A stretch of DNA of 64,000 nt from Candidatus Zhuqueibacterota bacterium (GTDB taxonomy: Bacteria > Zhuqueibacterota > Zhuqueibacteria > Thermofontimicrobiales > Thiofontviventaceae), in contig JAZBPW010000150.1 in the NCBI GenBank assembly GCA_036351795.1, positions 1,842 to 65,841 on the forward strand, given 5' to 3'. The first letter of the stretch is position 1. Each line of letters opens with the position of its first letter. Shown piece after piece: positions 11,011 through 30,929 of the stretch. Below the pieces are notes generated by a model. That model was not told the origin of the DNA and did no database searches. It saw only the letters and a program-made list of their open reading frames with translations. The translations under genes and the position numbers were made by a program.

Positions 11011-11204
11011 AAATGGCTCCGATCGCAATTTGTCGAATATTCTATTGGTATGCTTCGAAGATACAAAAATATTTCAAGCGATGCAAGATGATAATGTCAC
11101 GACGCCATGCATGGGAGGATGACAAAATGTCGTCTTTGAGATTTTAATCCGCTTTGTACGGGGCGTGCAAAATTTCCGGGGCTTCAGCATATTTTCAGAG
11201 GCTG

Positions 11205-11253
11205 TATATACAAAATAGAGATCCGGGAAGCGTCTCTTCCCCGGATCTCTATT
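11205..11253 (-). terminator. Rho-independent terminator after the giant gene
   Basis: On the minus-strand RNA: AAUAGAGAUCCGGGGAAG-AGACG-CUUCCCGGAUCUCUAUU followed by UUGUAUAU. The stem is near-perfect and GC-rich (one bulged G). It lies 50 nt downstream of the stop at 11304. Confidence 0.75.
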
Positions 11254-11303
11254 CCTGTCCAATCTTGATGACTTCAAACCGTGTGCATAAAAATTGCTTG
11301 AGT

Positions 11304-11570
11304 TTACTTCATCAACATCATCTTCATCGTTTTACGATATTCCCCTGTCTGAATGACGCACACGTATACGCCAGTTGGGACATCATTCCCATACTCATCC
11401 AGGCCATTCCAGTGGATTTGATGGGTTCCGGCGTTTCTCGATTCATTCACCAATGTTACGATTTGCTGTCCCAGCAGGTTGAATATTCGCAAGTCGACCA
11501 TACTCTCTTCCGGAAGATCGAACGTAATAACCGTGGCATTATTGAATGGATTCGGATAGTTCTGCCACAG
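11304..11570 (-). other. T9SS type-A C-terminal sorting domain of the giant protein
   Basis: QNYPNPFN is encoded at 11541-11564. The last ~85 aa end ..GVYVCVIQTGEYRKTMKMMLMK. Confidence 0.75.
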
Positions 11571-17500: not shown

Positions 17501-19535
17501 CCAGGGTATTGATATTATCTCCGCCATCGAGAGATCTCCAGTATGTGACCGGTCCGCCATTCGGATTCGGACATCCCAGTATGATCTGCAGTTGATCGCC
17601 ATAGCTGGCATCTATCTCGACGCGGTCATCCGCACGATATGATGTGAGATTGTCCTGAGTATCGACTACCACTCCATTTTCAATGCGATAATACTTCACC
17701 GGTCCGAATACATCCGAAACAGCCGAGCCGCGTACGATGTGTACCCGGTTCTGTGAATCGATATCCATGCGCACCATGTATCCGCGAGTCACTCTGTCGG
17801 AAACGAGAAGAGGTGAACTCCACCCAGAACCTGTTTTATATACATAATAGATATTGAATTTGAAGTTACCCTCATCCGTACGATAACATACATGAGGATC
17901 ACCGTTATTATCCACGGCAACCGTGGCTCCAAAATACCCTTCGCCCGGGATACCTGCGGTGCCTGGGACATTTTCCTGAACAATAACATTGCCAAGCGCA
18001 TCCGTTTTCGTATAGACGACGCCGTTATTGAGGGAAACAATATGCAAATGTCCCGTCGCATGATCGATATCAAGGTCGGGTGCGGTGCCGGATGAGATGT
18101 TCAACTCCCCAGACCATTCCGCACTGCCGAAAGCGAGTGCAAAATTGGCTTCGACAAATTTATTGCCATCCATGGTAATCATGGTATTTGCATTCGAAGG
18201 ATTCGCGACATCACCCGTCCAGTTCACAAAATCGAATCCATTGCCCGGTGTTGCGCTCAAAGGAACATTGGTGCCGTATGGATATGTGTACGCACCGACC
18301 GCCGGACTGGTAGATCCACCGTCGAAAGGATTTACCGAAATTGTGAGTGTATACTCGGCTGTAGCAAAATTGGCAACCACATTTTTATCACCATTCATCA
18401 GGATGGTTGTAGAGGGGGAATTTGGATCTGCAACATCTCCCGTCCAGCTCACAAATTGATACCCTGTCGCCGCAACAGCAGATATGTTCACCTGCTGGTC
18501 TGAGGCATAGCTGTGATTGCCCACCGTTGGTGTCGTTGTCCCTCCCAGAGGGGGATCAACTGACATTTCGAGTGTGTATTGAACCATCTGAAAATTCGCC
18601 GTAATCACTTTATCATCGTCCATCGTCACCTGAGTGCTTGGATTCGCAGGGTCTGCGACATCACCAGTCCATCCCAGGAATACGTAGCCAGCCTCGGGAG
18701 TGGCAGTGACATTCACAATAGAACCGTGCCCATAGGTGTGAAAGCCGGCGCTTGGAACTGTTGTTCCTCCAGCACCGGGATCGACCTGAATAGTCAGCTG
18801 ATGTTGAATCGTTGTAAAATTTGCTGTGACGGTCTTATCCCCATCCATCGTGACTGTGGTGGATGCGATGTTCGGATCCTGGACATCACCGGTCCAGTTG
18901 ACGAACTGGAATCCTGTTGCCGGTGTCGCCGCGATATCCACGATATCACCCGGCGGGTACTGATGCGTCCCTGCCGCTGGATCGACTGCACCACCGTTGC
19001 CGGGATCCACCGCAGTCGTCAGAGTGAAGGAAGGACCTCCGATCGTAATCACAACAGCCGTCGTACCCAGCGCATCGAATGTCACACTGCTATCGCCCAA
19101 CGACACACCTGTCTCGTATTCATAAAATTGAATTTCACTCTGCTTTACATTATAAAACTCTCCCGGATCATCCAGCCATAACTTGAACAGCATCGTATCC
19201 CCCTGTACGAATCCGCATCCGGTCCCGTCATCGTTGGTGGCAATGATCTCTATCGGTTCATCCGGCGTTACGGGAGCAGTGAAGAGCGCCGCACCGACGC
19301 ATTCACCGGGTTCCGAGGATCCGAAAACACCGATCTCATCTCCGGCATCCAGATCCTGACCGTTATAGGTTACACCCGCAACAAAAATGTTCATCGGTGT
19401 GAATGGATTTTCACCCGGTGGAAGGCAGGATGTGATGTGAGTCTGTGAAAGTGCAATGCTGCTGAAAATAAAAATTGTCATTATCGTCAATATGACTGCC
19501 GATGGGAAATAACGCTTGTTCATTGTAAACTCCAT
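11304..19535 (-). CDS. Giant (2743-aa) T9SS-targeted surface/secreted glycan-binding-type protein: 4x InlB-B-like repeats, 2x Asp-box (BNR) modules, PKD, 7x Ig/BACON-like modules, 4x malectin, T9SS C-terminal domain
   Basis: One uninterrupted ORF. ATG at 19535; an alternative ATG at 19523 has GGAG 7 nt upstream. Signal peptide present. Asp-boxes SMNSGTTW and SQDGGATW. PKD-like '..GYSWNFGDG..'. Malectin-like modules '(A/G)WR(I/V)NCGGP..W.AD...GYVGG....I.NT.DD.LYQSERYG..YRF.VPNGDY...LHFAEIY'. C-terminal 'WQNYPNPFNNATVITFDLP'. Confidence 0.9.
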   Translation of the reverse strand: MEFTMNKRYFPSAVILTIMTIFIFSSIALSQTHITSCLPPGENPFTPMNIFVAGVTYNGQDLDAGDEIGVFGSSEPGECVGAALFTAPVTPDEPIEIIATNDDGTGCGFVQGDTMLFKLWLDDPGEFYNVKQSEIQFYEYETGVSLGDSSVTFDALGTTAVVITIGGPSFTLTTAVDPGNGGAVDPAAGTHQYPPGDIVDIAATPATGFQFVNWTGDVQDPNIASTTVTMDGDKTVTANFTTIQHQLTIQVDPGAGGTTVPSAGFHTYGHGSIVNVTATPEAGYVFLGWTGDVADPANPSTQVTMDDDKVITANFQMVQYTLEMSVDPPLGGTTTPTVGNHSYASDQQVNISAVAATGYQFVSWTGDVADPNSPSTTILMNGDKNVVANFATAEYTLTISVNPFDGGSTSPAVGAYTYPYGTNVPLSATPGNGFDFVNWTGDVANPSNANTMITMDGNKFVEANFALAFGSAEWSGELNISSGTAPDLDIDHATGHLHIVSLNNGVVYTKTDALGNVIVQENVPGTAGIPGEGYFGATVAVDNNGDPHVCYRTDEGNFKFNIYYVYKTGSGWSSPLLVSDRVTRGYMVRMDIDSQNRVHIVRGSAVSDVFGPVKYYRIENGVVVDTQDNLTSYRADDRVEIDASYGDQLQIILGCPNPNGGPVTYWRSLDGGDNINTLGDIHDGAAIDRNGCPDVFTDASGIVHICYGAAKDTDVNNKPSVRYSRWQNGSKVKDVTVTNEGDCIPWKQDQGIASIASSANGQIVAVAYTHTDGGDLYSTFSMNSGTTWEDREFLAANCGGAESRDKHVIRATGNRFYLVYPVESGIKLRFISFSNSNDQAPVADAGGPYYGDAGFSVTLDGSASYDDIGIVGYSWNFGDGQTGTGQLVNHVYAADNVYTATLTVVDSSGQISTSSTPVFIGNALSDVWSSPIQISSGDTPDLDIHKGTGNLHLLVMKNGVTYFKLDRYGNVVLEENVPGAENDEGMMRFGASIAVDSQDYPHIGYRVYRSSNRYDLYYTYKSATGWSTPLKIGDNVLRGYVVRLAADSADRIYYCHSSVTDVVTNTGPVHMYVLQNGAVIYHQDNIDQTRGDERYEVDVSDGGFLDLIAGDLSYPSSGGPIYYWRSNTPGGQLGYMGDFHNNIDARPGENGSPDVFVDDVNGTHVCYGVAIDQTVDKMPSLRYLRFSNGGKVRDVRVTRKGELDDWKFKMGIGSIAASADGENVVAAYLVTEDGELRTRLSQDGGATWGDPVALSDGWDCAESRNKHVIRANGNTFYLVYPEDGIKLRILGTPQIPQPNLSVSPAILDFQNIHSQLQLEVRNSGSGTLNWSVSNVASAWVTNVQPQVGSLGTGQSQMVTVTVDRSGLGDGGYNDILAVSSNGGNINIPIEMDVGGPSAWRINCGGPAYVDNSSQQWVADQAYTAGSFGYVGGDPYSTSDPIGNTNDDVLYQSERYGLSSYRFTVPNGDYEVELHFAEIYHNSRNTRLMSVTLEGTPVLTNLDIFDAAGHDAALVYNFNTRDLGVSVVDGRLDIGFVNVKDQAKISAIYVTKMAPQGPVFSINPASLDFGRVAVVETLVVRNSGESQLQWNLGSFSSSWVTSVLPQSGTLSANTSENVYVTINRAGLSEGFYNAVLPFNSNAGGKNVSVSMEVHTPAPNMALTPTDLNYGYFSTSLSVELVNTGDLPLTWEVLALDRPAWIASITPGNGVTAPGNTQQVTIIATRNGLAAGTHNGVLHFSSDGGNIDVNLSIKAGDPNAWRVNCGGPAYVDKGGDLWMADQPFNSNFYGYVGGDSYATADPIANTDDDSLYQSERYGMTAYRFNVPNGDYRIKLHFAEIYHQSARKRKINVQLEGDPIVEGLDIYSAAGHDAAYVLSFNTQDLGLTVTDGRIDLEFSANKDLPKISAIEVAGIASSGPQMVINPTTLSYGSTALNDTFKITNTGGSALNWQVQTISVAWISGVQPMNGALNPGQSVDVIVSINRAGLAEGVYVGVLNIGSNAGGQNVELSMSVQGSSAQMSVTPASLTFLDAVNSLNLLINNTGQEILNWQISTAGRPSWVSSVTPSSGSLLAGESAGVTVAVDRTGMTNGTYNGSLSVTSNGGNVTVPVQLQVGSSLGWRINCGGPQYTSTTGKQWSADKQHTAGSFGYVGGDQYSTTSSIANTTNDVLYQSERYRMTAYRFDVPNGDYQIKLHFAEIYFKATNRRVMSVNLEGTTVVQGLDIYKEVGRNTAYVVTLSTSALGLTISDGRIDLTFSSSKDLPKISAIEVTPDTPAGPALTITPVSLDLGSANTSGILSVMNSGGSSLTWQLGTITTAWITDVQPASGTLAAGVAQNVTVTIDRSGESEGSYTGVIPFTSNAGNQNVEVKMNVTVPGPELTLSTPSLEFGYFANTLYFDVSNTGDLPLSWNIPATGRAAWISSVLPESGTLAAGSSATVNVMVNRTGLAEGTYSDILTILSDGGNSALFVKVSSGDLRINAGGPALTDITGAAWQADQPYSSGEYGYTGGNNYQTLDPIANTDLDPIYQTERWGMTTYQIDASNQDYFITLHLAEIYYSADNKRIMSVSLEGTKIVSDLDIFAQAGHDAAMTLTFSTRSLGLTISDGRIDLAFSHAKDAPKISGIEVRKDLTVASEFAANSGTLDEEVQLIPQEYKLWQNYPNPFNNATVITFDLPEESMVDLRIFNLLGQQIVTLVNESRNAGTHQIHWNGLDEYGNDVPTGVYVCVIQTGEYRKTMKMMLMK
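11658..15650 (-). repeat. In-frame coding super-repeat: Ig-malectin followed by 3x (Ig-Ig-malectin), with ~1080-nt period
   Basis: The malectin N-terminal anchors (A/G/D)(W/L)R(I/V)N(C/A)GG are encoded at 15322-15344, 14241-14264, 13161-13184 and 12090-12113, giving spacings of 1080, 1080 and 1071 nt. The module ends KISAI(Y/E)V / KISGIEV are encoded at ~14889-14910, 13809-13829, 12729-12749 and 11658-11678. Confidence 0.9.
18141..19033 (-). repeat. Four tandem ~74-aa InlB B-repeat-like (Listeria-Bacteroides-type) coding repeats
   Basis: Repeat units start FTLTTAVDPGNGG, HQLTIQVDPGAGG, YTLEMSVDPPLGG and YTLTISVNPFDGG. Each ends ..F(V/L).WTGDV..P....T.(V/I)(T/L)M.GDK.V.ANF. Confidence 0.8.
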
Positions 19536-19808: not shown

Positions 19809-21989
19809 GTGGACGGAGTCAGAATAAACATCACAGGAAATCCACTTCTTTTTTCCCTCATCGCCGGGGTATTCATTGCTTTCAGTATCATGCTCTATCG
19901 CAGAACGAATCCGCCTGTTTCTGCTGCGTTGAGAAGAACGCTCACTCTTCTGCGTACCAGCGCTCTGATTATGATCGCTTTCTTACTCTTCGAGCCGCTG
20001 CTGACACTAAGGCTTAAACGGGATGATAAACCGGTCGTTGCCGTTCTCGTGGATAACTCCGCCAGCATGAGTTTGACCGATGCCGGAACGGTTCGTCCCG
20101 ATGAGTTGTCGCGCGTACTCAACCACTCGGTTTTCAATAATCCACCGAAAGACATACAGTTTGTATATTTCGCGTTTTCGAGCGGGCTTCGTGATCTCGA
20201 ACTTCAACCTGACGATTCTTTGACGTTCACGCAAGACGGGACTGACATTGCCACAAGCCTTCAGCAGTTGAAAACAAAACTTGAGCGAGCCAACCTTGCA
20301 GGCGTCATTTTGGCAAGTGATGGCAATTACAATATTGGAGAGAATCCCGCCAGATTGGCACAGGACTTTGGCACGCCTCTCTTTCCCATAGCCATCGGAG
20401 ATCCGACTGAGCAGAAAGACCTCCTTATCTCGAGTGTCCACACAAACCGGATCACCTATGTCGAAAACAAGGTTCCCGTCGATATCACTATACGGGCGCA
20501 TGGATATCGCGGCAAGAAGATCAGCATCAGGCTGCAGGAGGGCAGCGATGTCATCGATTCGAAGGAAATCGTTCTGAATAACAACGATCTTGAGACCAGA
20601 ACACGCCTTCATTTCACACCACTTGAACATGGCAATAAAAAATATTCTGTGATCATTCCCGCGCTCAGGAATGAGCTCACTTCGAAGAACAACAAGGCTA
20701 ATTTTTACGTCAAAGTGCTGAAGAGTAAAATGCAACTACTCCTGATTGCAGGAGGCCCGGGTCTGGACCACTCATTCTTATCCCGTACTCTGAAGGAAGA
20801 CGAAAACATCGAACTGACAACCCGCGTCATGAAGAACAACACTGTGTTCTACGAAGGCGATATGGCGTTCTCTCCCGAAGCGCTTGGTAAATATGATGGC
20901 TTCGTTCTGCTGGATTTCCCGAGAAGGCAAAGTTCACCCGCGACAGTCGATGCACTCGCCAGGGTTCTTTCAGAATCCGATAAAGCGCTCTTTCTGATCG
21001 GTGGTAAAAATATATTTTACCCGGGGCTCAGGCCGCTGCAGAAATTTCTGCCAATGGCCATAAATTCGTCGACCGGAAATGAAAAACTCGTATATACCAT
21101 GTTATCCGGCGAAGGAGGAATTCATCCCGTCATGCGCCTATCGGAAAACGACATTGAAAATCAAACCGTATGGAAATCACTTCCTCCGATTCACTATTCG
21201 CTGAGAAATGTAAAGCTCCTCGACGGAGCGAAATCCCTGCTCGATGTTGACAAACAGGCTTCCAATATCCTGAGCGAGACAGCCGCGCTTCCCGCCATCA
21301 TCACCAGAAACATCGGCTCTCAGAAAACGATTGTTATCCTCGGTTACGACATCTGGCGATGGAATTTCCTGATGCAGGGAATCGGTCAATATAGCGACGC
21401 GTACAGCCAGATACTGACAAACTGTCTTCGGTGGCTTACGACAAGAGAGGATAGTAAACGGGTCAGGATTTATCCTGAAAAGGAGGTCTATCGCAGCGGG
21501 GAAAAAATCACGATAAATGCTGAAGTCTACTTTGAGGATTACCGGCCGCTGGATGGAGCGGAGGTCAAAGTGAATATACAAAGCGATGGTGAATCAAACG
21601 AGATTTTGCTCTCAGGTATCGGGAATGGCAAGTACGAAGGGACATTTCAGGTTCTTAAAGCCGGTGAGTATACGTATGCGGGCACGGCCAGTAGTCGTGA
21701 CAGACTCATAGCAAAGGACAGTGGCAGATTTTCCATAGAGGAATTCAGCCTCGAATATCACGACACTAACATGAACGAAACCATTCTCAAGCAGATCGCG
21801 GAAAACAGCGGCGGTACATATCACACCGTTGAATCGATGGACGCTCTGGCTATAGAATTGGATTTTCCAACGAGAGTGACATACGAAGAAATTCAGTGGG
21901 AAATATGGAACAGGATATATTTGCTGATCACCATCATCCTGCTGCTGAGTATTGAATGGTACATCAGGAAAAAGAGAGGTATGCTATAG
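19809..21989 (+). CDS. Membrane protein with BatA-like N-terminal double-TM, a vWA-like MIDAS segment and a C-terminal TM anchor; function unknown
   Basis: GTG start; no ATG lies upstream of the first TM. Two N-terminal TM helices are followed by 'VAVLVDNSASMSL' (DxSxS MIDAS-like). C-terminal hydrophobic helix plus RKKRG. Confidence 0.6.
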   Translation: MDGVRINITGNPLLFSLIAGVFIAFSIMLYRRTNPPVSAALRRTLTLLRTSALIMIAFLLFEPLLTLRLKRDDKPVVAVLVDNSASMSLTDAGTVRPDELSRVLNHSVFNNPPKDIQFVYFAFSSGLRDLELQPDDSLTFTQDGTDIATSLQQLKTKLERANLAGVILASDGNYNIGENPARLAQDFGTPLFPIAIGDPTEQKDLLISSVHTNRITYVENKVPVDITIRAHGYRGKKISIRLQEGSDVIDSKEIVLNNNDLETRTRLHFTPLEHGNKKYSVIIPALRNELTSKNNKANFYVKVLKSKMQLLLIAGGPGLDHSFLSRTLKEDENIELTTRVMKNNTVFYEGDMAFSPEALGKYDGFVLLDFPRRQSSPATVDALARVLSESDKALFLIGGKNIFYPGLRPLQKFLPMAINSSTGNEKLVYTMLSGEGGIHPVMRLSENDIENQTVWKSLPPIHYSLRNVKLLDGAKSLLDVDKQASNILSETAALPAIITRNIGSQKTIVILGYDIWRWNFLMQGIGQYSDAYSQILTNCLRWLTTREDSKRVRIYPEKEVYRSGEKITINAEVYFEDYRPLDGAEVKVNIQSDGESNEILLSGIGNGKYEGTFQVLKAGEYTYAGTASSRDRLIAKDSGRFSIEEFSLEYHDTNMNETILKQIAENSGGTYHTVESMDALAIELDFPTRVTYEEIQWEIWNRIYLLITIILLLSIEWYIRKKRGML

Positions 21990-23291
21990 CTATTCAACCT
22001 TGACGAGCATGAATTCTCCGTTTCCATTCCGATCTTCGAAAACAAATTTCCTGTTTATTTTCGCGTAAAACCATATTTCATATGGTGGTATGTTCATGTC
22101 GCTCGCAAATCTTTCGACATTTGACGGCGAACCGTATTTCATATAAACTTTGCCACGGTCTGTTTCCCAGGCAGTCTTGGCGATTCCGTTGACCGAAAAG
22201 TTATAGTTTACAAAATCAACCCGGCGATAGAATTCATCCATTAATTCATTCGCTTCGGTATCGGGCGTTGGATCCCGTTCTGACCAGTAGTTATCGAACA
22301 AAAACTCTCTTCGGGCTTCAGGCGCCGACGTCCACACATCCCACGTATCCTTGCTCACAAATTCCTTCAGTGGTTCGATGGCACGATTCACATTCAACTG
22401 CGTGGATTCAAAATAGCGCCAGTTTGATGAAAAGGATATTGATTGTTCCCGCTTCACTCCGCTTTGAGCCACCGTTACGGTCAGTTTATATTTGTTTGCA
22501 TCATCCACGAGCTCTCTGAGATTTATGATCACCGGCATGATTGCTGAATCCGGATCTATCGTTTTCGAATTGGATACGACCAATCGCTTCGATATATCTT
22601 CAATCTGACAAGAAAATGTGATCTGGTCGTCGGGATTGGAAGTATATATCTCAAAGCATGCCCAGAAATTCGAATTGATATCATTGTACACTCTATTGAT
22701 ATCCGGTGTTGTCGATCGGATCCCCGCGTGATTTTGGATGGTATCGACATCGCTCGACAAAAAGATACTGCTCAAGTTCACAGGATTGACCTGAAATCCA
22801 GGGACTTCCAGCTCGGCCTCCCGCCGTAGAGATTTTCTATTATCCATGTCCGTCAGCTCGATGATCACACTATGCTTTCCCGGGATCAGATGTATTCCGT
22901 ACCGAATACGATTTGAAATGTTCTTCTGATTCGTCTCGGCGAAAGTTTGTGTGACAATATTACCGGAGAAGGTCTTGCCACCCATGTGGTTGCCTTTTCG
23001 ATCAAACACCGCGATCATCAGCTCGTATTCAGCCCGAAAATCGGATGCGTTCTCTTTTACGAACTGCAGGATGTCGTTGCAGAAACCGACGTGGATATCC
23101 ACATACGATCTTGTGTCATCTTCGAGTGAGCGGAATTGATAAAAATCGTACAACACAACCGGTGTTCCGAAAAACCGGCTCTTCTGCCCATTGCGTCCGG
23201 AGTCTCTCATGTGCTGGCCAGTGAGCGTGCCGGTTAGTATGATGAAGATCAAAAAAATGAGTGGTGTTTTTTTCATATTATTCCCTGTCAT
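21990..23291 (-). CDS. GWxTD domain-containing exported protein
   Basis: Signal peptide. C-terminal 'WSERDPTPDTEANELMDEFYRRVDFVNYNF...AWETDRGKVYMKYGSPSNVE...YEIWFY'; the W-E-T-D-R-G motif is encoded at ~22152-22169. Confidence 0.8.
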   Translation of the reverse strand: MTGNNMKKTPLIFLIFIILTGTLTGQHMRDSGRNGQKSRFFGTPVVLYDFYQFRSLEDDTRSYVDIHVGFCNDILQFVKENASDFRAEYELMIAVFDRKGNHMGGKTFSGNIVTQTFAETNQKNISNRIRYGIHLIPGKHSVIIELTDMDNRKSLRREAELEVPGFQVNPVNLSSIFLSSDVDTIQNHAGIRSTTPDINRVYNDINSNFWACFEIYTSNPDDQITFSCQIEDISKRLVVSNSKTIDPDSAIMPVIINLRELVDDANKYKLTVTVAQSGVKREQSISFSSNWRYFESTQLNVNRAIEPLKEFVSKDTWDVWTSAPEARREFLFDNYWSERDPTPDTEANELMDEFYRRVDFVNYNFSVNGIAKTAWETDRGKVYMKYGSPSNVERFASDMNIPPYEIWFYAKINRKFVFEDRNGNGEFMLVKVE

Positions 23292-23347
23292 TCAATGGAT
23301 CCTGTGATATCTGACGATTCACGACGATTATGCTGAGTTGATCTGTT

Positions 23348-26300
23348 TTAAAATTCAGGACCCAATGAAAAATAATATACCGGTTTCGGCGATGTGGAGG
23401 CGAGGTCGGTCGTCCACGCCGCGTCAAATCTCAGCAGAAAGAATCCCAGATTGAGCCGCGCACCGAAGCCATACCCCATAAAAATATCATCGAACCGCGG
23501 CAGGGAGCCAGTGCTCGAACGAAATGCTCTGAAATTATTATCATCCCATGCAGAGCCCGCGTCGACAAATAGCGCACCGCGAATATTTGCCAGTCCAAGC
23601 GGCAGAGGCCATCCCATAATAAAATATCGAATGAATGGAAAACGAAATTCCAGATTTGCCAGCGCGAAACGGTTTCCAACTCGTTCATAGTAGAGTCCTC
23701 CGCGCATCGGCATTTCGAACGAGCTGAAATAGATATCATCCACGTCGTTCACGCGGATACCTCCGTAGCGCGTACTATAGTTGAGCCAGCCGGGTGTACC
23801 TCCGAGAAAAAACTTCTGCGGCTCCTTCCCCTCGCTGAATCCGCCGGACAATCGTACGACAAAGTTGTAATCCTTGCCGGTGCGTAAATATTTCCGCCAG
23901 TCAGCCCTGAAGGTCAAAAAATCCAGACTGTACTGGCTGTATCCCGGACTGTAGGTGACGCCATAAGATGAACGCGTTCCATTGACTGGCCCGGTATACC
24001 CCCACACGACGGTATCGTTGACCAGATGGAGGTCGAAAAACAGATTTCGCTTCTTTTCGGTTTCCAGTTCATACTGGAGGTAATCACGATCGATCCCCAG
24101 CCAGGTAAAAGAGAAATCGGTTCGTCGAAATTTTGAAAAAGGATAGGACAAACTGCCCATAAATCCATAATTCCGGTCTCTCACCCAACCGTAAGATGTG
24201 TAAAAGTAGTAGGCGTAATGAAATCCTCCTGCACCGTAGTCCATCTTCTTCGGCAAATAGAAATACGAACCCTGAAAATTGGAATTCTTCAGGTCATAGA
24301 ACAGATTGGTATACAAATAAATTCTGTGATTGCCCAGAATATCAGAGAGTGCGATCTGTGTGGCGCCCTGGAAGCCGAAGAACTGGCTGTAACTGGCATT
24401 GCCATAAACAAGGTCGGGCGAAAACTTTATCTTATAGTTGTTCACCTTATATTCACCATTCGCCAGTTTGAAATCTGAAGAATCGAGAAACGCCGACTCC
24501 TGATCGTCTTCCGCCTGCACGAGTCCGTCTTTAAACTTGCTGTCAAAAATGTAGTTCTTATAGGCCTGCACATCTTCAGACGATTCCTCCTCCACGGGTG
24601 AATCAAATGCATAGAACGATTCGTTTTTGAACGCCTTATGTCCGTTTTTCGCAATGAAATTCGTCTCTTGAATCTGAATTTCGCCCGGCGATACTTTGGA
24701 TGGGTTTTTCATCAGATAGATATCATAACCACCCTTGTAAAATGACGTGAAGGCGATCTGATCCACTCTGCCTTCCCACGACAGATGAAAAATGCCGGTG
24801 AGCACATTCGTAATCGGATATTCAATACCCGATTCGAGATTGTGTATGTAGATATTGTAGATCCCCTTTCTGTCGCTGACAAATGCAATACGATCACCAT
24901 CTGAGGAAAATACGGGACTGAGTTCATTCGCCCGCGTGTCGGTGATCCGTTTGACTTCATAACCATCGCGATCCACTGTATAGATATCCAGGCTGTAGAA
25001 ATTGGAACGATATACTTCGAAGTCTTCAGGAACAGCCTCTCTGTTCAGATAATCTCCTCGATCACTGGCAAAGGTAAGCATTTTACCATCGGCAGACCAT
25101 GTCGGCTCCAGATCACTAAAGACGTCATCCGTGATTTTTCTCATCTTTCGCGTCTGGAGATGGTAAGCATAGATATCGCCCTGACCGTTTTCGATACCCA
25201 TAAAGGCGATCTCTTCTCCGTTTGGCGACCAGGCCGGGCTGAATATTCCGTCGATACTGAGCTTGATGGTCTTTACGATTTTTCTCTTGTCCACGTCAAC
25301 CAGATGCAGCGCGTCCTGATCTCCCGCTTTTGCCGCAAAGACGATGTGCTCACCGTCCGGCGACCAGCTGATACCGGCCCGAAGCCAGTGCAGTTCCTCG
25401 AGATTCGACGTCTGTTGCCCGCTCACCAGCTTACAAATGATCTTTCCATCAATGGCGCTTAACAGATAAATGTCGAAATAATCTGATCTGTCCGAAAGAT
25501 AAGCGATCTTATCTCCATTCGGTGAGAGCGCCGGTCCGCTGTTGACAAAGTTTCTGTCCTCTTCATGATCCGTCAACTTTTTGGCAAATTCCTCCGGTTC
25601 CTTTCTGTCGGCGATATCAGGCCAATACTCGCGCTTCAGATGCATATGCCATTTCTCAGTCAGATCTTCGGGATCAACCCCGATTGCCTGCTTCATTCCT
25701 TTGACCATACTCTTCGAAACCTTGATCTTTCCAAGAAGCTCACCGATCTTTTCCTGACCATACTTTTCCGACAGATAGTAGAGCACCGACTGGCCACCTT
25801 TGTACGCCATAAATCCATATAGCTGAGATACATTGGGAACGTATCCATTCAAGGCAGCGTCCCGTATATACATGTCGCTTTCTGTATCCCAACCGCGACT
25901 CTCATATTCAGCCAGACCTTCAATCAGCCAGAGTGGTAACTGCAGTCGTGCCATTCCGGTAATGATCGACTGTGTTCCCGCTCCGTAAACCATCTGCAAC
26001 ATGACAGCATGCGTCAATTCATGATGTATGACGTGCCGGAACTGCTCCCAATTCCCCTCGAACGGGATGACAACACGATTCTTGAAAAACTCGGTGAATC
26101 CACCGACCGATTCGTCCGGGGGCGACAGGGTCACATTGGTCTGTCCGAAATCATTATGACTGTTATAGGTGATTATTTTTATCCGATCCAGCAGGTCATA
26201 TCTCAGACTTTTCGACAGGCGCTTATAGCTTGCTTCGCTTATCTCCGCCACAAATTCAGCGATGGATTCACCCCCATCGGTGAAATAGATATCGAAATGT

Positions 26301-26428
26301 TCTGACTGAATGTATTGCCAGTTGAAATCTTCATACTGCACCTTGTTCTTGCCAAAATACTGGCTAAAAATGACCTGCGGCAGCAGCAAAAATCCTATAC
26401 ATAAACTGATCAATCTGTTCATCGTCAT
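23348..26428 (-). CDS. Outer-membrane fusion protein: N-terminal zincin-like (HExxH) module, PD40/TolB-like beta-propeller repeats and a C-terminal Omp85/BamA-type barrel
   Basis: Signal peptide. 'HVIHHELTHAV' is an HExxH motif. Repeated '..SP(N/D)G..IAF.SDR.G..(D/N)IY..' PD40 units. The C-terminal ~350 aa are rich in alternating aromatic beta-strands and end '..YYFSLGPEF' (terminal Phe). Confidence 0.7.
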   Translation of the reverse strand: MTMNRLISLCIGFLLLPQVIFSQYFGKNKVQYEDFNWQYIQSEHFDIYFTDGGESIAEFVAEISEASYKRLSKSLRYDLLDRIKIITYNSHNDFGQTNVTLSPPDESVGGFTEFFKNRVVIPFEGNWEQFRHVIHHELTHAVMLQMVYGAGTQSIITGMARLQLPLWLIEGLAEYESRGWDTESDMYIRDAALNGYVPNVSQLYGFMAYKGGQSVLYYLSEKYGQEKIGELLGKIKVSKSMVKGMKQAIGVDPEDLTEKWHMHLKREYWPDIADRKEPEEFAKKLTDHEEDRNFVNSGPALSPNGDKIAYLSDRSDYFDIYLLSAIDGKIICKLVSGQQTSNLEELHWLRAGISWSPDGEHIVFAAKAGDQDALHLVDVDKRKIVKTIKLSIDGIFSPAWSPNGEEIAFMGIENGQGDIYAYHLQTRKMRKITDDVFSDLEPTWSADGKMLTFASDRGDYLNREAVPEDFEVYRSNFYSLDIYTVDRDGYEVKRITDTRANELSPVFSSDGDRIAFVSDRKGIYNIYIHNLESGIEYPITNVLTGIFHLSWEGRVDQIAFTSFYKGGYDIYLMKNPSKVSPGEIQIQETNFIAKNGHKAFKNESFYAFDSPVEEESSEDVQAYKNYIFDSKFKDGLVQAEDDQESAFLDSSDFKLANGEYKVNNYKIKFSPDLVYGNASYSQFFGFQGATQIALSDILGNHRIYLYTNLFYDLKNSNFQGSYFYLPKKMDYGAGGFHYAYYFYTSYGWVRDRNYGFMGSLSYPFSKFRRTDFSFTWLGIDRDYLQYELETEKKRNLFFDLHLVNDTVVWGYTGPVNGTRSSYGVTYSPGYSQYSLDFLTFRADWRKYLRTGKDYNFVVRLSGGFSEGKEPQKFFLGGTPGWLNYSTRYGGIRVNDVDDIYFSSFEMPMRGGLYYERVGNRFALANLEFRFPFIRYFIMGWPLPLGLANIRGALFVDAGSAWDDNNFRAFRSSTGSLPRFDDIFMGYGFGARLNLGFFLLRFDAAWTTDLASTSPKPVYYFSLGPEF

Positions 26429-26469
26429 AATTACAAATCTCCTACTGTATCAATGAGTGATGCCCGGTA

Positions 26470-28074
26470 CTATTCTACGCGAAACTCCTCAAGGAATATC
26501 CCCAGCTTATTTGAATTCCGGTCCGTCACACTGAGAGCGAGCGTATAGGAGCCTTTCGGCAGTTCAAAATCAAATCGAAAACTCCTCCTGGCCTTCTTGT
26601 CGCTCCCTGACTCTGCTAAAACACCGATATCTTTCTGATTGGAAAGGACTTCTCTGAAATCATTATTGTAGACCACATATCTTTCAAGAAATTTTGCCGA
26701 ATACTTCCCGTCATCCTTTAAAAATTCAATGTCCTTTGCTGACAATTTATAAACCACATCAATTTTCTTTAGATCCGAAACGCTCTTTTTCACATCCAGC
26801 GCCACCTCAAAGTCCTTCATAGGGCTGTAATCTTTATACGCATCAAATCTGAATTCGTTTTTATAAATATACTCGGTTTCGATGTATGATTGATTGTTGC
26901 GGTACATGATCCTGCTCATCGGGCCGGGTTTTATACCGTTCCCGAAAATATTCGTGATATATGGTTTCACTGCAAAATCAACATCATACCGGTAATATCT
27001 CCATATTTCTTCGTACATGCCACGGCTTGTGTCCCGGTGGTCAGGGTCACCATATTTCACATACAACTCCCCCCGACTGTCCCAGGGCGCCACGCTCCAT
27101 CCTTCCCGCAGATACTGCTGAGTAAGATGTTTGAATTGCCTGCCATTCCATTCATCACCAAAGTTATCTCGCGCATACCGGACGCGTCGAAGGAATTCAT
27201 CTCTCCGTTCATTGGCATCCGTAGTCGGTGTCGGATCCCAGCGCTTCCAGAATCTTCTCAACCATTCTTCACGATCGTAGTCAGCACTCAGGGAAAAATA
27301 ATCTTCAAACTGATTCGAATCCAGTATATGCCATAACCCAAAGTTCATGAGTTCTGTATCAGACCAATCCTCCCCTTTCCTGTTCAACTGCAGATATGTT
27401 TTGTAGCGATTGGTTTCATAAAATAGCTTATCCCAGAAACTCTGATCAGATCCCTCGCTGGACAATCCCCCCTCATTCTTAGATTTCAACAGTATTTCGA
27501 TATCCGACAACGATTTCTCTTCTTCCGTAACAGGTGCCGGCGTACCTTCAATTTTCTCAATCAGCTTTTTTGACATGGCCGCGAGATCCACATCATCTCC
27601 CCTGCCAATATTCTTGAGTACAGGCAACGCGGCGCGATTTCCAAGCTCTCCTAGACTGATTGCGGCCTGGTTTCTGATATTCACATCTGGATCATCCAAT
27701 TTTTGTTTGAGAAATTCTGCGTAGCTCTCCTTACCATTCCTGACAAATGTCTCCGCCAGAAATATTTGATGAATGACCGCGTCATCGACCCAGGCGCTTT
27801 TTGGGTGTTTATCGATCACTTCCTGATACGTGAAAAACGCATCTTCCAATTCTCCCTGTTTTTCCAGAATATACGCATTCCAGAAATCAGCATCATCGCG
27901 ATAGCGGCTTTCGGGATATCTGTCCCGCAACTTGTTAAATGACTGAATGGCCTTATTCCACTTCTTTTCAATGGTCAATTTTCGCGCTTGCTTGTATAGT
28001 GTGAAGTCATTCTGACCAAACAGCGTGGAAACTTGTATGAAATGTATGACAAGCAAAACCAAGATTCGTTTCAT
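26470..28074 (-). CDS. TPR/HEAT-repeat plus GWxTD domain exported protein
   Basis: ATG at 28074 has GGGAG 6-7 nt upstream, giving signal peptide MKRILVLLVIHFIQVSTLFGQ; the ORF-track ATG at 28095 is the alternative. HEAT-like '..DPDVNIRNQAAISLGELGNRAALPVL..'. GWxTD region 'RFWKRWDPTPTTDANERRDEFLRRVRYARDNF...PWDSRGELYVKYGDPDHRD..EIWRY'. Confidence 0.75.
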   Translation of the reverse strand: MKRILVLLVIHFIQVSTLFGQNDFTLYKQARKLTIEKKWNKAIQSFNKLRDRYPESRYRDDADFWNAYILEKQGELEDAFFTYQEVIDKHPKSAWVDDAVIHQIFLAETFVRNGKESYAEFLKQKLDDPDVNIRNQAAISLGELGNRAALPVLKNIGRGDDVDLAAMSKKLIEKIEGTPAPVTEEEKSLSDIEILLKSKNEGGLSSEGSDQSFWDKLFYETNRYKTYLQLNRKGEDWSDTELMNFGLWHILDSNQFEDYFSLSADYDREEWLRRFWKRWDPTPTTDANERRDEFLRRVRYARDNFGDEWNGRQFKHLTQQYLREGWSVAPWDSRGELYVKYGDPDHRDTSRGMYEEIWRYYRYDVDFAVKPYITNIFGNGIKPGPMSRIMYRNNQSYIETEYIYKNEFRFDAYKDYSPMKDFEVALDVKKSVSDLKKIDVVYKLSAKDIEFLKDDGKYSAKFLERYVVYNNDFREVLSNQKDIGVLAESGSDKKARRSFRFDFELPKGSYTLALSVTDRNSNKLGIFLEEFRVE

Positions 28075-28084
28075 CAACAGCTCC

Positions 28085-28804
28085 CTAGGATACATTTACA
28101 AGCTGAATCTCTTTCAGTTCTGAAAATATCCTCATGTCTTTAATGCTCTTTTTCACGTATTCAAGTTCTTCGTTCGACACATCATCTTTTATATTTGATA
28201 CCTCCAGGAGTATGATCTCCAGTCGATCGAGCAGATGTTCCAACCGGACATTCTTGTCTTTCCTTGCCACCTCTTTAAGAATCATTGTTTTCTGCAATAA
28301 TTGTTGGCAATCGATATCATCCATAATATATTTCAATTCATGATAAGCGTCCATATTCGCCGTTTCAAGCAGCAACAGTTCCGTCTCAAACAGGTAATTG
28401 TTCAACAGTTTTGCATCGACAACGGATTGTTGCGCCAATGGTTGTTGCGCCGGCGTCACAAAGAGGAAGCGTCCAAGGACAAATCCCAGCAGAAGCACGG
28501 CCGTCAATTCGGCAAGCCTCACACCGAAAGATGGAACCCGAATCCAGGAATCCAGTAATTGCTGATACCATGAATCCTCTTTATAGATCGAGCTCAGATT
28601 CTGATGGTAGGAACTTATGAGTGCTCTGTCCGGTCTGGGCCGCGAGCGCCTGGACATTATCCCGGTCGTCTCTTCTATCCTGCGCAGTTCTTCAGCACAC
28701 AAAGGACATTCGGAAATATGCGCTTCAATTTCAGATAACTCGTGTCCCGCGATATCACCGTAGTGATAGTCTATTAATTTTATTTTAGTTTTGCATGTTT
28801 TCAT
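28085..28804 (-). CDS. Anti-sigma factor (zf-HC2 type, single TM)
   Basis: N-terminal 'H.SECPLCAEEL' putative zinc-finger motif and a central TM (LAELTAVLLLGFVLGRFLFV). It overlaps the sigma gene by 20 nt. Confidence 0.75.
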   Translation of the reverse strand: MKTCKTKIKLIDYHYGDIAGHELSEIEAHISECPLCAEELRRIEETTGIMSRRSRPRPDRALISSYHQNLSSIYKEDSWYQQLLDSWIRVPSFGVRLAELTAVLLLGFVLGRFLFVTPAQQPLAQQSVVDAKLLNNYLFETELLLLETANMDAYHELKYIMDDIDCQQLLQKTMILKEVARKDKNVRLEHLLDRLEIILLEVSNIKDDVSNEELEYVKKSIKDMRIFSELKEIQLVNVS

Positions 28805-29372
28805 CTTCTTTCAAAGACTCTCTTAGTTTGTTAATTGCTCTGAATAAATGGCTTCTCACTGTGCCGGGCTTGCATTCAAGAATTTTGGATATTTCATACA
28901 TGCTCATGCCATGATAGTGGCGCAACACAAATGCCTCGCGTTGTTGTTCCGACAGCGTATCCAGTGCATTTTCAATCTTCTCTTTGAGATCCTTGATCTC
29001 CAATCGCTCAAGCGGATCCTTCTCTTTATCACGAAGTATGATCCTGCCCGGCATTGGATCATCTTCATTCTGTATATTCTTATCGATTGAAACAGACGAT
29101 CTTCTGTATTTCGATCTCTTGAAATCAATAGATTGATTGACGGTTATTCGATATAGCCACGTGGAGAAAGAGGACTTGCCTTTAAACTTCCGGATACCGC
29201 TGAACACCCGCAAAAAAACTGATTGAGCGACATCCTGGGCATCGTCGTAATTTCCAAGCAAATCATAAGCCAGATATAGAACCTTGTTCCTGTACTTCTT
29301 GACTAATTTACCAAAGGCTCTCCTGTCTCCGCGCTGCGCCTTTTGAATCAATTTCTGATCAATATCAGCCAT
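28785..29372 (-). CDS. ECF-type RNA polymerase sigma-70 family factor
   Basis: 195 aa. Region 2 'DAQDVAQSVFLRVF....F.G.S.FSTWLYRITVN' and region 4 'LSEQQREAFVLRHYHGMSMYEISKILECKPGTVRSHLFRAINKLR'. Confidence 0.9.
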   Translation of the reverse strand: MADIDQKLIQKAQRGDRRAFGKLVKKYRNKVLYLAYDLLGNYDDAQDVAQSVFLRVFSGIRKFKGKSSFSTWLYRITVNQSIDFKRSKYRRSSVSIDKNIQNEDDPMPGRIILRDKEKDPLERLEIKDLKEKIENALDTLSEQQREAFVLRHYHGMSMYEISKILECKPGTVRSHLFRAINKLRESLKEDENMQN

Positions 29373-29385
29373 TCGGTACTATTTG

Positions 29386-29412
29386 GACGGTGGCAAAGTT
29401 ATTATGTTTACA
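29386..29412 (-). promoter_or_regulatory. Candidate ECF-type promoter (TGTAAAC-N16-CGTC) upstream of the sigma gene
   Basis: The minus strand reads TGTAAAC ATAATAACTTTGCCAC CGTCCAAAT, ending ~10 nt before the ATG at 29372. The AAC/CGT spacing is 16 nt, as in many ECF promoters. This would give a very short leader. Confidence 0.3.
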
Positions 29413-29582: not shown

Positions 29583-30929
29583 TCACATCATCTCTGATAT
29601 TGTGACAAATTCATATCCCTTATTTCTCATTTCGTTGATGATCATGGGAAGTTTCAGATGCGGATAGTCGTCAGTCCTCATCGTGCCCAGATGCATCAAT
29701 ACAATCGTACCATTAGCGCCATATTGGGACCCGTTTCCGTAGGACAATATTTTTTGTACAATCTCGTCGGCCGAATGATAGGCAGGAGAGTTTTTATCCG
29801 CGACCCAATCCAGCGTATCCATCCCGTTTTCCCAATTCTTCCCAAGTGTCCAGCCGACATGACGGAATCCGGCTTCGGCTGCCCAGGAACGGATATCGGC
29901 ATTATGTTCACCGTACGGCGCTCGCCAAAATGATGCCATCTTCTGACCGGTAATATGCTTATAAAGTTCGGCCACTCGTAACAGCTCCTGCCGGACGACT
30001 TCGCGGTTTATGTTCTCAAGTGTGTTGTGCCGCCTGTTCTCCGCGAAACTTGTTAAATGTGGATGTGTCCAAGTATGATTCCCAATCTCGTGCCCTTCAG
30101 CAAGCATCCGCTTGACAAGCTCCGGATACTTTCTCAAATAGATCCCGGTGAGAAACATGGTGGCTTTCACGTTTTCCTGATTGAGAATGTCCAGGATGTC
30201 AGGCGTTGCGTTATCGAGGTAGCCGCCGTCAAATGTCAGCGCGATCTTCTTTTCATCGATACTTCCACGCACAAAGTCTCTGGCCAGGAATGAACGCGTT
30301 GGAACGCCATAAGTAAAATTGATCTCTTCCAACACCACACTGCTTCCATCCTCGTTGAACGAACGCACAACAAATTGATTTTTCCCGGGTCTGGCCGTGA
30401 TACCCGTGAATTTGAATGTGCTGCCTTTCACGACCTGTGCCTCAATCAGCTTCCCCTTAGAGGAGACTGTGACAATGCGGTTCGGCTCCGTTTCTCCTTC
30501 GATCGTGAAGTTGTTCTTCATCACCATCGATCCCGGTTGAGGTGTCAGGACTGTCAGCGTATCCAGTGTATGAGCGACGCTGTCGATTGAAACCGCTGGG
30601 GGAGATTCTGCCTCGACGTCCAGAGTGTTTCGAATCTCATTGATCTTCTGCAAGTTGTTGATACCCAGAATAATGCTGATCATCAAACCAAAGAGCAATG
30701 CCGCATTGATCACATTTGAAAAATTGAGTCTTTTTTCATCCAGCATGTAAACTTTAAACTGTCTGAAAGCGGTTTTGACTGCAGCAATCACAGACACAGC
30801 CAGGCATTTATAACTGCAGAAGACTCTGTTCATGATATTGATCTGACACTGCTCACATATCAGATCGCCACAACAATGACACTTGCACTCAGTCGACATT
30901 TCAGGATGATTTTTGCACACATGTTTCAT
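29583..30929 (-). CDS. Polysaccharide deacetylase (NodB homology, CE4) with an N-terminal Cys-rich zinc-ribbon and one TM
   Basis: N-terminal CKNHPE..CKCHCCGDLICEQCQ..FCSYKC, then a TM. NodB motifs 'IALTFDGGY', 'ATMFLTG', 'GHEIGNHTWTHPHL' and 'RAPYGE'. Confidence 0.85.
   Translation of the reverse strand: MKHVCKNHPEMSTECKCHCCGDLICEQCQINIMNRVFCSYKCLAVSVIAAVKTAFRQFKVYMLDEKRLNFSNVINAALLFGLMISIILGINNLQKINEIRNTLDVEAESPPAVSIDSVAHTLDTLTVLTPQPGSMVMKNNFTIEGETEPNRIVTVSSKGKLIEAQVVKGSTFKFTGITARPGKNQFVVRSFNEDGSSVVLEEINFTYGVPTRSFLARDFVRGSIDEKKIALTFDGGYLDNATPDILDILNQENVKATMFLTGIYLRKYPELVKRMLAEGHEIGNHTWTHPHLTSFAENRRHNTLENINREVVRQELLRVAELYKHITGQKMASFWRAPYGEHNADIRSWAAEAGFRHVGWTLGKNWENGMDTLDWVADKNSPAYHSADEIVQKILSYGNGSQYGANGTIVLMHLGTMRTDDYPHLKLPMIINEMRNKGYEFVTISEMM

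Follow-up and report, generated by a model that had tools for sequence, protein, structure and literature searches.

A portable ECF sigma cassette coupled to an Omp85 zincin fusion and GWxTD proteins in candidate division KSB1

What is the output of an extracytoplasmic function (ECF) sigma factor whose gene is followed by outer-membrane and periplasmic genes of orphan families? This question is raised by a run of five minus-strand genes in a stretch of 64,000 nucleotides (nt; hereafter, the window) from Candidatus Zhuqueibacterota bacterium (assembly GCA_036351795.1, contig JAZBPW010000150.1, positions 1,842-65,841 of the forward strand), whose best matches fall in candidate division KSB1. The genes encode an ECF sigma factor, a zinc-finger anti-sigma factor, a TPR/HEAT-repeat protein with a GWxTD domain, a fusion of zincin, propeller and Omp85 barrel of 1026 amino acids (aa), and a second GWxTD protein. 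An initial annotation of the window had regarded them as one outer-membrane machine without a named counterpart. Comparison with related loci shows that a portable ECF cassette has, in this lineage, been coupled to a conserved pair of fusion and GWxTD genes, whereas most of the much larger fusion family is linked to neither a GWxTD nor an ECF gene. As to its function, we favour, at about an even chance, an ECF-sigma-inducible envelope operon of two evolutionarily separable parts, with envelope proteolysis or quality control as its output.

Five packed genes in two separable sub-modules

Relatives of the locus were collected by a genome scan with the fusion, followed by tblastn and phmmer. The five-gene order suggested by the window proved to be a recurring layout. 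One locus (L018, fusion 68% identical) contains the full unit, including a 538-aa TPR/HEAT-GWxTD protein, in the same PrmA-DUF4390-deacetylase context as in the window. Four KSB1 contigs (L001, L002, L003 and L007, fusions 64-65% identical) keep the genes for sigma factor, anti-sigma factor, TPR/HEAT protein, fusion and GWxTD protein in this order, and a truncated KSB1 contig (L004, in the same range of identity) belongs with them. In the four complete cases the third gene is shorter, encoding a protein of ~260 aa that has no GWxTD domain. The two closest relatives (L016 and L017, fusions 74-75% identical) lead from the deacetylase gene directly to the fusion and GWxTD genes, and no sigma, anti-sigma or TPR gene is present at either locus. 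Their flanks are syntenic with the window on both sides, from a YARHG gene to the deacetylase gene and on to the gene convergent with the unit, within which the L017 contig ends. The converse case is given by L019, where a sigma gene, a zf-HC2 anti-sigma gene and a TPR/HEAT-GWxTD gene (33% identical) stand together without a fusion, and L020 has a sigma fragment followed by a TPR/HEAT-GWxTD gene. Comparison of gene neighbourhoods, as envisaged in the initial annotation, thus gave a divided answer: the order is kept in L018, L001-L003 and L007, while the sigma cassette is missing from L016 and L017 and the fusion from L019.

Two further loci add to this picture. In L011, a 1042-aa fusion gene overlaps a GWxTD gene (25% identical to that of the window) behind a MacB-type efflux cluster and with no ECF gene, and in L024 a 708-aa TPR-GWxTD gene lies 1.7 kb upstream of a fusion-GWxTD pair, likewise with no ECF gene. 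Because L016, L017 and L011 have only the one part and L019 and L020 only the other, the locus is made of two separable sub-modules: sub-module A, consisting of the ECF sigma factor, the zinc-finger anti-sigma factor and the TPR/HEAT(+GWxTD) protein, and sub-module B, consisting of the fusion and the ~430-aa GWxTD protein. The pairing within sub-module B is tight, the GWxTD gene often overlapping the fusion gene or lying 4-13 nt away from it. A GWxTD homologue directly downstream of the fusion was found in L001-L004, L007, L011, L016-L018, L022-L024, L029, L036 and L042, and the pairing spans two neighbouring clades of the fusion tree, over which identity falls to 42% for the fusion and to 25% for the GWxTD protein. 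As for sub-module A, the L019 cassette (10678-13284) is followed by genes for a 425-aa protein without a family match and a 430-aa outer-membrane protein of the Toluene_X (FadL-like) family, so that the cassette may control different outer-membrane outputs in different lineages. The 425-aa protein was considered as a cryptic GWxTD protein and discarded, as it gave no match with a GWxTD hidden Markov model (HMM).

In the window itself, the five genes form a tightly packed unit on one strand (Table 1), and here the details given in the initial annotation were borne out by the coordinates. The end of the sigma gene overlaps the beginning of the anti-sigma gene by 20 nt. The third gene starts with the ATG at 28074, 10 nt after the anti-sigma TAG, and its Shine-Dalgarno sequence (GGAG) overlaps that stop codon; the same start is used in the NCBI annotation (P0185, 534 aa). 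Spacers of 41 nt and 56 nt separate the fusion gene from the third and the fifth gene, respectively, the latter starting five codons later in the NCBI version (P0121, 428 aa). At the far end, the stop of the GWxTD gene at 21990 directly abuts the end of the convergent gene at 21989. No intergenic terminator-like hairpin was detected within the run; the scanned region contains nine hairpins, against 8.4 expected by chance, and all of them are intragenic. From the 20-nt overlap, the gaps of 10-56 nt and the lack of an intergenic terminator we infer an operon, in which the five genes are probably co-transcribed.

Upstream of the sigma gene there is a candidate autoregulated promoter, in which a -35-like TAAAC is followed, after a 16-nt spacer, by a -10-like CGTC, 36 nt 5' of the sigma start codon. 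The initial annotation had referred to an AAC-N16-CGTC site as a transcription start to be expected, and this match lies at 29386-29408. On its own, the pattern is not above chance in the window (five matches vs 6.45 expected). However, TAAAC-N16/17-CGTC precedes the sigma start by 32-48 nt in all seven loci with a complete sigma gene (the window, L001, L002, L003, L007, L018 and L019), whose spacers and flanks are otherwise unrelated. The motif is therefore significant because of its conservation across loci and not by its count in the window, and its reading as a phylogenetic footprint of an autoregulated ECF-type promoter is well supported by this recurrence. In L016, L017 and L011, loci without a sigma gene, no TAAAC-N16/17-CGTC was found ahead of the fusion gene. 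Both features by which an ECF system is recognised, a cognate anti-sigma factor and a promoter with AAC at -35 and CGT at -10, are thus represented at the locus, the former by the gene overlap and the latter by the conserved predicted element. Two other promoter candidates were rejected. AAAC-N18-CGTC at 23323-23348, in the gap that follows the fusion gene, is not spaced as an ECF promoter should be, and patterns of this kind are no more frequent than chance predicts; AAC-N16-CGTC 212 nt upstream of the fusion in L006 lies within small open reading frames (ORFs) of the opposite strand and has no supporting conservation.

Table 1. Coordinates of the five-gene unit, its candidate promoter and neighbouring genes in the window
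Feature	Position	Strand	Description
Candidate autoregulated ECF promoter	29386..29409	-	TAAAC (-35-like), 16-nt spacer, CGTC (-10-like)
ECF sigma gene	28785-29372	-	ORF, 195 aa
Anti-sigma gene	28085-28804	-	ORF, 239 aa
TPR/HEAT+GWxTD gene	26470-28095 as ORF; 26470-28074 from best start	-	541 aa as ORF; 534 aa from best start
Zincin/propeller/Omp85 fusion gene	23348-26428	-	ORF, 1026 aa
GWxTD gene (fifth)	21990-23291	-	ORF, 433 aa
Convergent membrane-protein gene	19809-21989	+	ORF, 726 aa
Giant surface protein gene	11304-19535	-	2743 aa
Polysaccharide deacetylase gene	29583-30929	-	448 aa
PEGA-domain protein gene	4283-6436	-	717 aa
PKD + FGE-sulfatase-domain protein gene	2589-4283	-	

The encoded proteins

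Profile HMM searches against Pfam and NCBIfam upheld the domain calls of the initial annotation for the five products, including the GWxTD assignment, with zf-HC2 as a match below its cut-off. The most unusual of the five products, the fusion, is composed of a signal peptide, an MA-clan gluzincin, a TolB/Tricorn-like PD40 propeller, a variable acidic linker and an Omp85 barrel ending in GPEF. In Pfam, Peptidase_MA_2 is matched with 41.6 bits (cut-off 32.4; 1.5e-10), PD40 with 113.9 bits (2.2e-33) and Omp85 with 37.4 bits (cut-off 24; 2.7e-9). The zincin region carries HHELTH at residues 135-140 and EGLAEYE at 170-176, of which H136, E137, H140, E170 and E174 do not vary among 18 homologues with identities as low as 31%. 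This combination of HExxH with a downstream Glu marks the domain, at the sequence level, as an MA-clan gluzincin, and since HExxH and EGLAE are invariant and part of the best-conserved block of the whole fusion, the protease is probably active. The propeller finds TolB in a sequence search of the PDB and matches the TolB model TIGR02800 (3e-42), yet with 145 bits vs a cut-off of 343 and only over model positions ~197-300, i.e. it falls short of TolB proper; Pfam matches on fusion homologues also include Tricorn_N and Tricorn_2nd. The acidic linker (residues ~590-660) is poorly conserved. No POTRA family is among the Pfam matches of the fusion at E<=0.01 (sequence profiles), which would set it apart from the POTRA-bearing BamA, TamA, TpsB and PlpD types.

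Omp85 barrels are marked by lid-lock motifs, (V/I)RG(Y/F) on loop L6 and (F/G)xDxG on strand 13 (PMC4490367). The barrel of the fusion has MRGG (R909/G910), a variant of the former with M for V/I and G for Y/F, and FVDAG (F954/D956/G958), which by the definition of that study is of the insertase-type FxDxG and not the translocase-type GxDxG. The numbered residues are invariant across the 18 homologues, and the C-terminal residue of the barrel is Phe. Because RG and FxDxG are invariant and the barrel ends in Phe, we take it to be a real Omp85 protein, as also indicated by the PF01103 score above cut-off. The family is large (2026 clusters at 50% identity and E<=1e-30); its best 150 matches, most of them over the full length, have E values below 1e-141 throughout, and those members that bear a name belong to KSB1, Calditrichota and Coatesbacteria. 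Our literature search found nothing on Omp85 with PD40 by those terms, and with Peptidase_MA_2 only an unrelated genome paper.

The fifth protein is a clear GWxTD protein (TIGR04514 in NCBIfam, 88.2 bits vs 28; PF20094 in Pfam, 51.2 vs 26.9; 7e-54 with a purpose-built GWxTD HMM), although its name motif reads AWETDRG, with A replacing G. The R and G that follow the motif are invariant in the alignment of the family. The GWxTD proteins of these loci all have a signal peptide, and none has a lipobox Cys. An AlphaFold2 (AF2) model of the fifth protein (predicted local distance difference test score, pLDDT, 85.0) comprises two tandem beta-sandwiches and a C-terminal GWxTD domain, the latter modelled as five helices and a four-stranded sheet (pLDDT 88.6 when modelled alone). 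With the whole protein, Foldseek returned generic sandwiches only, from RbmA, transglutaminase barrels and arrestin (TM score <=0.34). The GWxTD domain alone gave no significant match to solved structures (best E 0.29), and the matches to BLIP, OsmE and RelE-like proteins were accordingly not used; a GWxTD sequence profile run against the PDB gave spurious response-regulator matches only (E ~0.02). No paper mentioning GWxTD, TIGR04514 or PF20094 was found in our literature search.

The third protein consists of a signal peptide, a TPR/HEAT region (TPR_6, YfiO and HEAT_2 in Pfam), a divergent GWxTD domain and a C-terminal beta-sandwich. The domain is recognised by TIGR04514 (39.9 bits vs a cut-off of 28, residues 257-368) and by the purpose-built HMM (2e-29, residues 239-379); the Pfam GWxTD model (PF20094) gave no match, and the name motif is degenerate, reading PWDSRG with an insertion and the loss of T-D. 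This architecture of 500-560 aa makes up a family of its own, with 35 full-length cluster representatives besides the protein of the window, and its gene is preceded by a sigma gene in the window, L018, L019 and L020 (directly upstream in the latter three). Its TPR part stays well below the models for BamD (TIGR03302, 39.1 vs 81.4 bits), whose lipidated Cys after the signal peptide it also lacks, and CpoB (TIGR02795, 50.6 vs 90.1 bits), and it is neither of the two by these measures.

GWxTD domains also occur in other settings. P0180, a 618-aa protein from a JGI metagenome, is a BlaR1/M56-type membrane zincin (HEQAH) with four transmembrane segments, in which a GWxTD domain (residues 343-477) occupies the extracytoplasmic sensor position after the last transmembrane segment and is followed by a beta-sandwich; this domain fusion hints that GWxTD may work with zincins in signalling. 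Of six distant GWxTD genes, five (P0151, P0158, P0172, P0182 and P0174) have no fusion or ECF gene nearby. Distant GWxTD genes were seen beside genes for ABC or MacB/FtsX-type transporters (L009, 6391-9275; L015, 3768-8279), and in L011 a full OEP-MFP-ABC-FtsX cluster lies upstream of the fusion-GWxTD pair, so GWxTD genes may be recurrently associated with Lol/MacB-like systems.

The regulators are of known kinds. With a sigma-2 and a sigma-4 region only (Sigma70_r2, 6.8e-19; Sigma70_r4_2, 4.7e-18, both Pfam) and 125.5 bits against the family model TIGR02937 (cut-off 42.9), the first protein is an ECF (group 4) sigma-70 factor. It scores below every equivalog cut-off, e.g. that of RpoE (TIGR02939, 141.8 vs 236.15 bits), and its orthologues in L001-L003 and L007 are 47-52% identical. 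The second protein matches zf-HC2 (PF13490) weakly, below the Pfam gathering score (17.5 vs 22.2 bits, E 0.0046), and NF052375 with 27.8 vs 100 bits (E 2.2e-6). Its N-terminal H-x3-C-x2-C motif (HISECPLC, residues 29-36), together with a single hydrophobic segment in the hydropathy profile (residues 93-111) as putative membrane anchor, fits class I of the zf-HC2 anti-sigma factors. The remaining C-terminal part of ~125 aa is predicted to be helical and extracytoplasmic.

Proposed mechanism, rival readings and neighbouring genes

How might these parts work together? At rest, the anti-sigma factor would hold the sigma factor at the inner membrane. An envelope signal would be read on the periplasmic side, where the TPR/HEAT-GWxTD protein would probably act as a co-sensor or modulator, as RseB does for RseA, and would lead to inactivation of the anti-sigma factor. 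The freed sigma factor would then transcribe its own operon from TAAAC-N16/17-CGTC and read through into sub-module B. The output would be a zinc metalloprotease, gated by a TolB-like propeller and anchored together with it by an Omp85-type barrel. Both domains would most likely face the periplasm, an orientation suggested by the precedent of PlpD, in which the N-terminal enzyme lies in the periplasm and has envelope components as its targets (Hanson et al. 2024; PMC11116518). The secreted ~430-aa GWxTD protein, with its two beta-sandwiches, could be a partner of the protease (an adaptor, regulator or substrate), its GWxTD domain serving as a binding or sensor module. The likely job of the whole would be to degrade or process envelope proteins under stress, such proteins being the presumed substrates.

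Several observations count against this proposal. As the ~260-aa third protein of L001-L007 has no GWxTD domain, this domain is not essential to the cassette. Since L016 and L017, the closest relatives, keep the fusion-GWxTD pair at a locus without sigma, anti-sigma or TPR gene, ECF control must be dispensable there or act in trans. The fold of the GWxTD domain gave no significant structural match, so that its suggested role derives from its context. That transcription continues from the sigma promoter as far as the fusion gene is likewise deduced from the spacing of the genes. Finally, the linkage does not extend far into the fusion family. A metagenome scan, for which an alignment of seven fusion sequences served as query (one of 18 being too diverse), yielded 80 full-length fusion loci with 37-61% identity. 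Downstream sequence of 1.5 kb or more was available for 66 of them; a GWxTD gene directly follows the fusion in six, leaving 60 homologues without an adjacent one. For 57 loci the upstream side extended over 3 kb or more, and no ECF sigma gene was found there in any. In a neighbour-joining tree of the fusions, the GWxTD-linked loci fall into two neighbouring clades, KSB1 and L011/L029/L036/L042, and the ECF-linked loci into a single KSB1 subclade. Together with L016 and L017, which lack sub-module A, and L019, which lacks sub-module B, and with the five distant GWxTD genes in unrelated contexts, these counts do not bear out the view of the initial annotation, if its one machine with two GWxTD proteins at the core is taken as an obligate unit. 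Because most homologues are unlinked and lie among housekeeping genes, the core function of the fusion needs neither GWxTD nor ECF partners.

The surroundings of these unlinked fusions deserve a description of their own. In 18-24 loci the fusion gene belongs to a recurrent block that runs from a ~1500-aa AsmA/YhdP/DUF748-like protein through RNase R and the fusion to RadA and Tgt (e.g. in L039, L043, L076, L091 and L095), often with divergent Metallophos and HEAT-repeat genes upstream. The proximity of an AsmA-like protein to an Omp85 protein recalls the TamA-TamB pairing. The fusions of L005 and L006 lie in unrelated gene contexts.

An ECF cassette usually controls the genes that directly follow it. 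At the present locus, the alternative would be a coincidental juxtaposition, in which a constitutive housekeeping fusion-GWxTD pair has had an unrelated ECF cassette land upstream of it in one KSB1 subclade, the cassette regulating only itself or distant genes. This is what one might conclude from the separate occurrence of the two sub-modules, from the lack of upstream ECF genes in the wider loci, from the housekeeping synteny of the wider family and from L019, whose cassette precedes other genes. However, the junction between the sub-modules is kept in at least six loci with fusions of 64-68% identity, always on the same strand, with short gaps and no detected terminator, and the general habit of ECF cassettes also argues for control of the adjacent genes. 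Besides, a functional tie is suggested by the presence of GWxTD in both sub-modules (in the window and L018) and by L024, in which a TPR-GWxTD gene lies near the fusion even though no ECF gene is there. We therefore consider coincidence unlikely, although it is to be taken seriously.

A second alternative concerns the direction in which the fusion faces. The barrel might export or display the zincin and propeller so as to digest extracellular proteins, as was first proposed for type Vd secretion, with the GWxTD proteins as secreted substrate-binding helpers and the ECF system sensing the availability of substrate. Surface translocation was raised as an option by Heinz and Lithgow (2014; Front Microbiol 5:370, PMC4104836), who, for Omp85 proteins that have an enzyme at the N-terminus, weigh periplasmic quality control against export to the surface. 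The propeller, moreover, matches the peptide-gating propellers of Tricorn/DPP-IV type peptidases, the sandwiches at the N-terminal end of the GWxTD protein are similar to matrix and adhesion modules such as RbmA, and large surface proteins with type IX secretion signals are encoded nearby. Yet the PlpD precedent has itself been overturned, its enzyme domain being periplasmic (PMC11116518); the fusion has neither a POTRA domain nor a passenger-like beta-helix by Pfam, and its barrel motif is of the insertase and not the translocase type. A folded propeller would also be an unlikely cargo for a 16-stranded barrel, and the housekeeping synteny of the fusion in most lineages better fits envelope maintenance. 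A surface protease or nutrient device thus seems improbable.

Two further ideas centre on the GWxTD domain. GWxTD might be an unrecognised extracytoplasmic sensor or adaptor fold that couples envelope zincins to transcription. The Omp85 zincin would then be more than an output: with its GWxTD partner it would sense and cleave at the outer membrane, acting on the third protein or the periplasmic domain of the anti-sigma factor and so switching on the ECF sigma factor. We regard this as decidedly improbable; if true, it would be a new way of signalling across the envelope, paralleled by BlaR1-type proteins with a GWxTD sensor. That the GWxTD proteins are instead periplasmic inhibitors or immunity-like partners, keeping the co-encoded zincin silent until the ECF signal arrives, is very improbable: the gene is tightly coupled to that of the zincin fusion in several lineages, GWxTD is fused to another zincin class (M56), the best fold matches were BLIP-like 3d4e, colicin D/ImmD and OsmE, and AprI-type periplasmic inhibitors are encoded beside some secreted metalloproteases, but those fold matches (E >=0.29, TM score ~0.2-0.27) carry no weight, a neighbouring GWxTD gene is missing from most loci of fusion homologues, and many GWxTD genes for their part are not next to a protease gene.

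Among the neighbouring genes, the convergent one encodes a 726-aa protein with two N-terminal transmembrane segments, a weak vWA-like region and a C-terminal transmembrane anchor. The label 'vWA-like' given to it in the initial annotation rests on E values of ~0.005 (Pfam VWA_CoxE 0.0055 and MG2 0.0049), and the protein has no NCBIfam or PDB match. A homologue is convergent to the GWxTD gene in L001, L004, L007, L016 and L017, while an LTD-domain gene takes its place in L018; the gene is thus a conserved neighbour and at most a candidate member of the module. On the other side, directly upstream of the ECF promoter region, lies the gene for the polysaccharide deacetylase, a protein with one transmembrane segment and an unusual Cys-rich N-terminus (CKNHPEMSTECKCHCCGDLICEQC), which is syntenic with the DUF4390 and PrmA genes in L016-L018. 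Beyond the convergent gene, a giant surface protein of 2743 aa carries four Malectin and six BACON_2 domains, Flg_new_2, PKD and, at its C-terminus, Por_Secre_tail, and a 2775-aa homologue is syntenic in L016. As the latter domain is a sorting signal of the type IX secretion system (T9SS), type IX secretion appears to operate in this organism. A further cluster also encodes envelope or surface proteins, one with DUF5683, a CsgG-like region at its N-terminus and five PEGA domains, the other, next to it, with PKD and FGE-sulfatase domains. Rfam and tRNA scans of the window gave no matches.

Comparison with known systems

The statement of the initial annotation that the locus matches no named system is not quite right as far as the fusion is concerned. 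Heinz and Lithgow (2014) defined in silico a 'WD40-like' subfamily of Omp85 proteins with PF07676 repeats and PF01103, whose Phyre2 matches (Table S3 of PMC4104836) are to the BamA/TamA barrel, TolB and an aminopeptidase, and whose members, among them those of Caldithrix, Rhodothermus and Chloroherpeton, extend to phyla other than the three named above. The fusion of the window shares the N-terminal aminopeptidase-like gluzincin, the TolB-like PD40 propeller, the BamA/TamA-like barrel and the lack of POTRA domains with this subfamily, and has Peptidase_MA_2, PD40 and Omp85 in that order. Because the tables of the subfamily list the same domains, the architecture must be regarded as already catalogued. 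No function, partner or regulator is given for the subfamily in that work (PMC4104836), and a link to GWxTD or ECF genes is not mentioned there. The family has thus been without an assigned function since it was catalogued in 2014, and GWxTD is an orphan likewise.

Among Omp85 proteins with an enzymatic N-terminal domain, PlpD (patatin-Omp85, 'type Vd') offers the closest parallel in design. PlpD, however, combines a patatin lipase with one POTRA domain, whereas the fusion has a gluzincin, a propeller and an acidic linker, with no detectable POTRA. Individual parts of the locus also resemble the TolB, CpoB (YbgF) and BamD proteins, the propeller being TolB-like and the N-terminal TPR region of the third protein like those of CpoB and BamD, but the scores are far below the equivalog cut-offs, and there is no TolB N-terminal domain, lipobox or tol-pal context. 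With BlaR1/MecR1 (M56), the locus would share the coupling of a zinc metalloprotease to a sensor domain outside the cytoplasm, through which a transcription regulator is controlled, and P0180 itself unites M56 with GWxTD. In the window, on the other hand, the GWxTD domains belong to secreted proteins of their own, the zincin belongs to the outer membrane, and an ECF sigma factor takes the place of a BlaI-type repressor.

In its regulatory logic the locus is best compared with the E. coli sigma-E/RseA/RseB system, in which a sigma factor, a single-pass anti-sigma factor and a periplasmic third component are encoded in one autoregulated operon. The sigma-E regulon includes BamA-E, BepA and DegP, of which BepA, a TPR-containing zinc protease, has its place of work at an Omp85 machine. 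The window likewise encodes a sigma factor, a putative single-pass anti-sigma factor and a periplasmic third protein, and its output would again be the handling of outer-membrane and periplasmic proteins. The components differ, the sigma factor scoring below the RpoE cut-off, the anti-sigma factor being of the HxxxCxxC type and not RseA, and the third protein being TPR/HEAT(+GWxTD) and not RseB. The locus would therefore be of a known kind, an ECF-controlled envelope operon, with real but uncharacterised families as its effectors. The KSB1 loci are the first place that ties both orphan families to a regulator with a recognisable promoter, which should provide a regulatory and experimental handle on them. 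A further difference from the sigma-E regulon is that the protease of the window is covalently fused to the barrel. Should this protease be periplasmic, it would be the second case, after PlpD, of an Omp85 barrel that anchors an enzyme of envelope maintenance, and one in which a BepA-like quality-control protease has been fused directly to the barrel.

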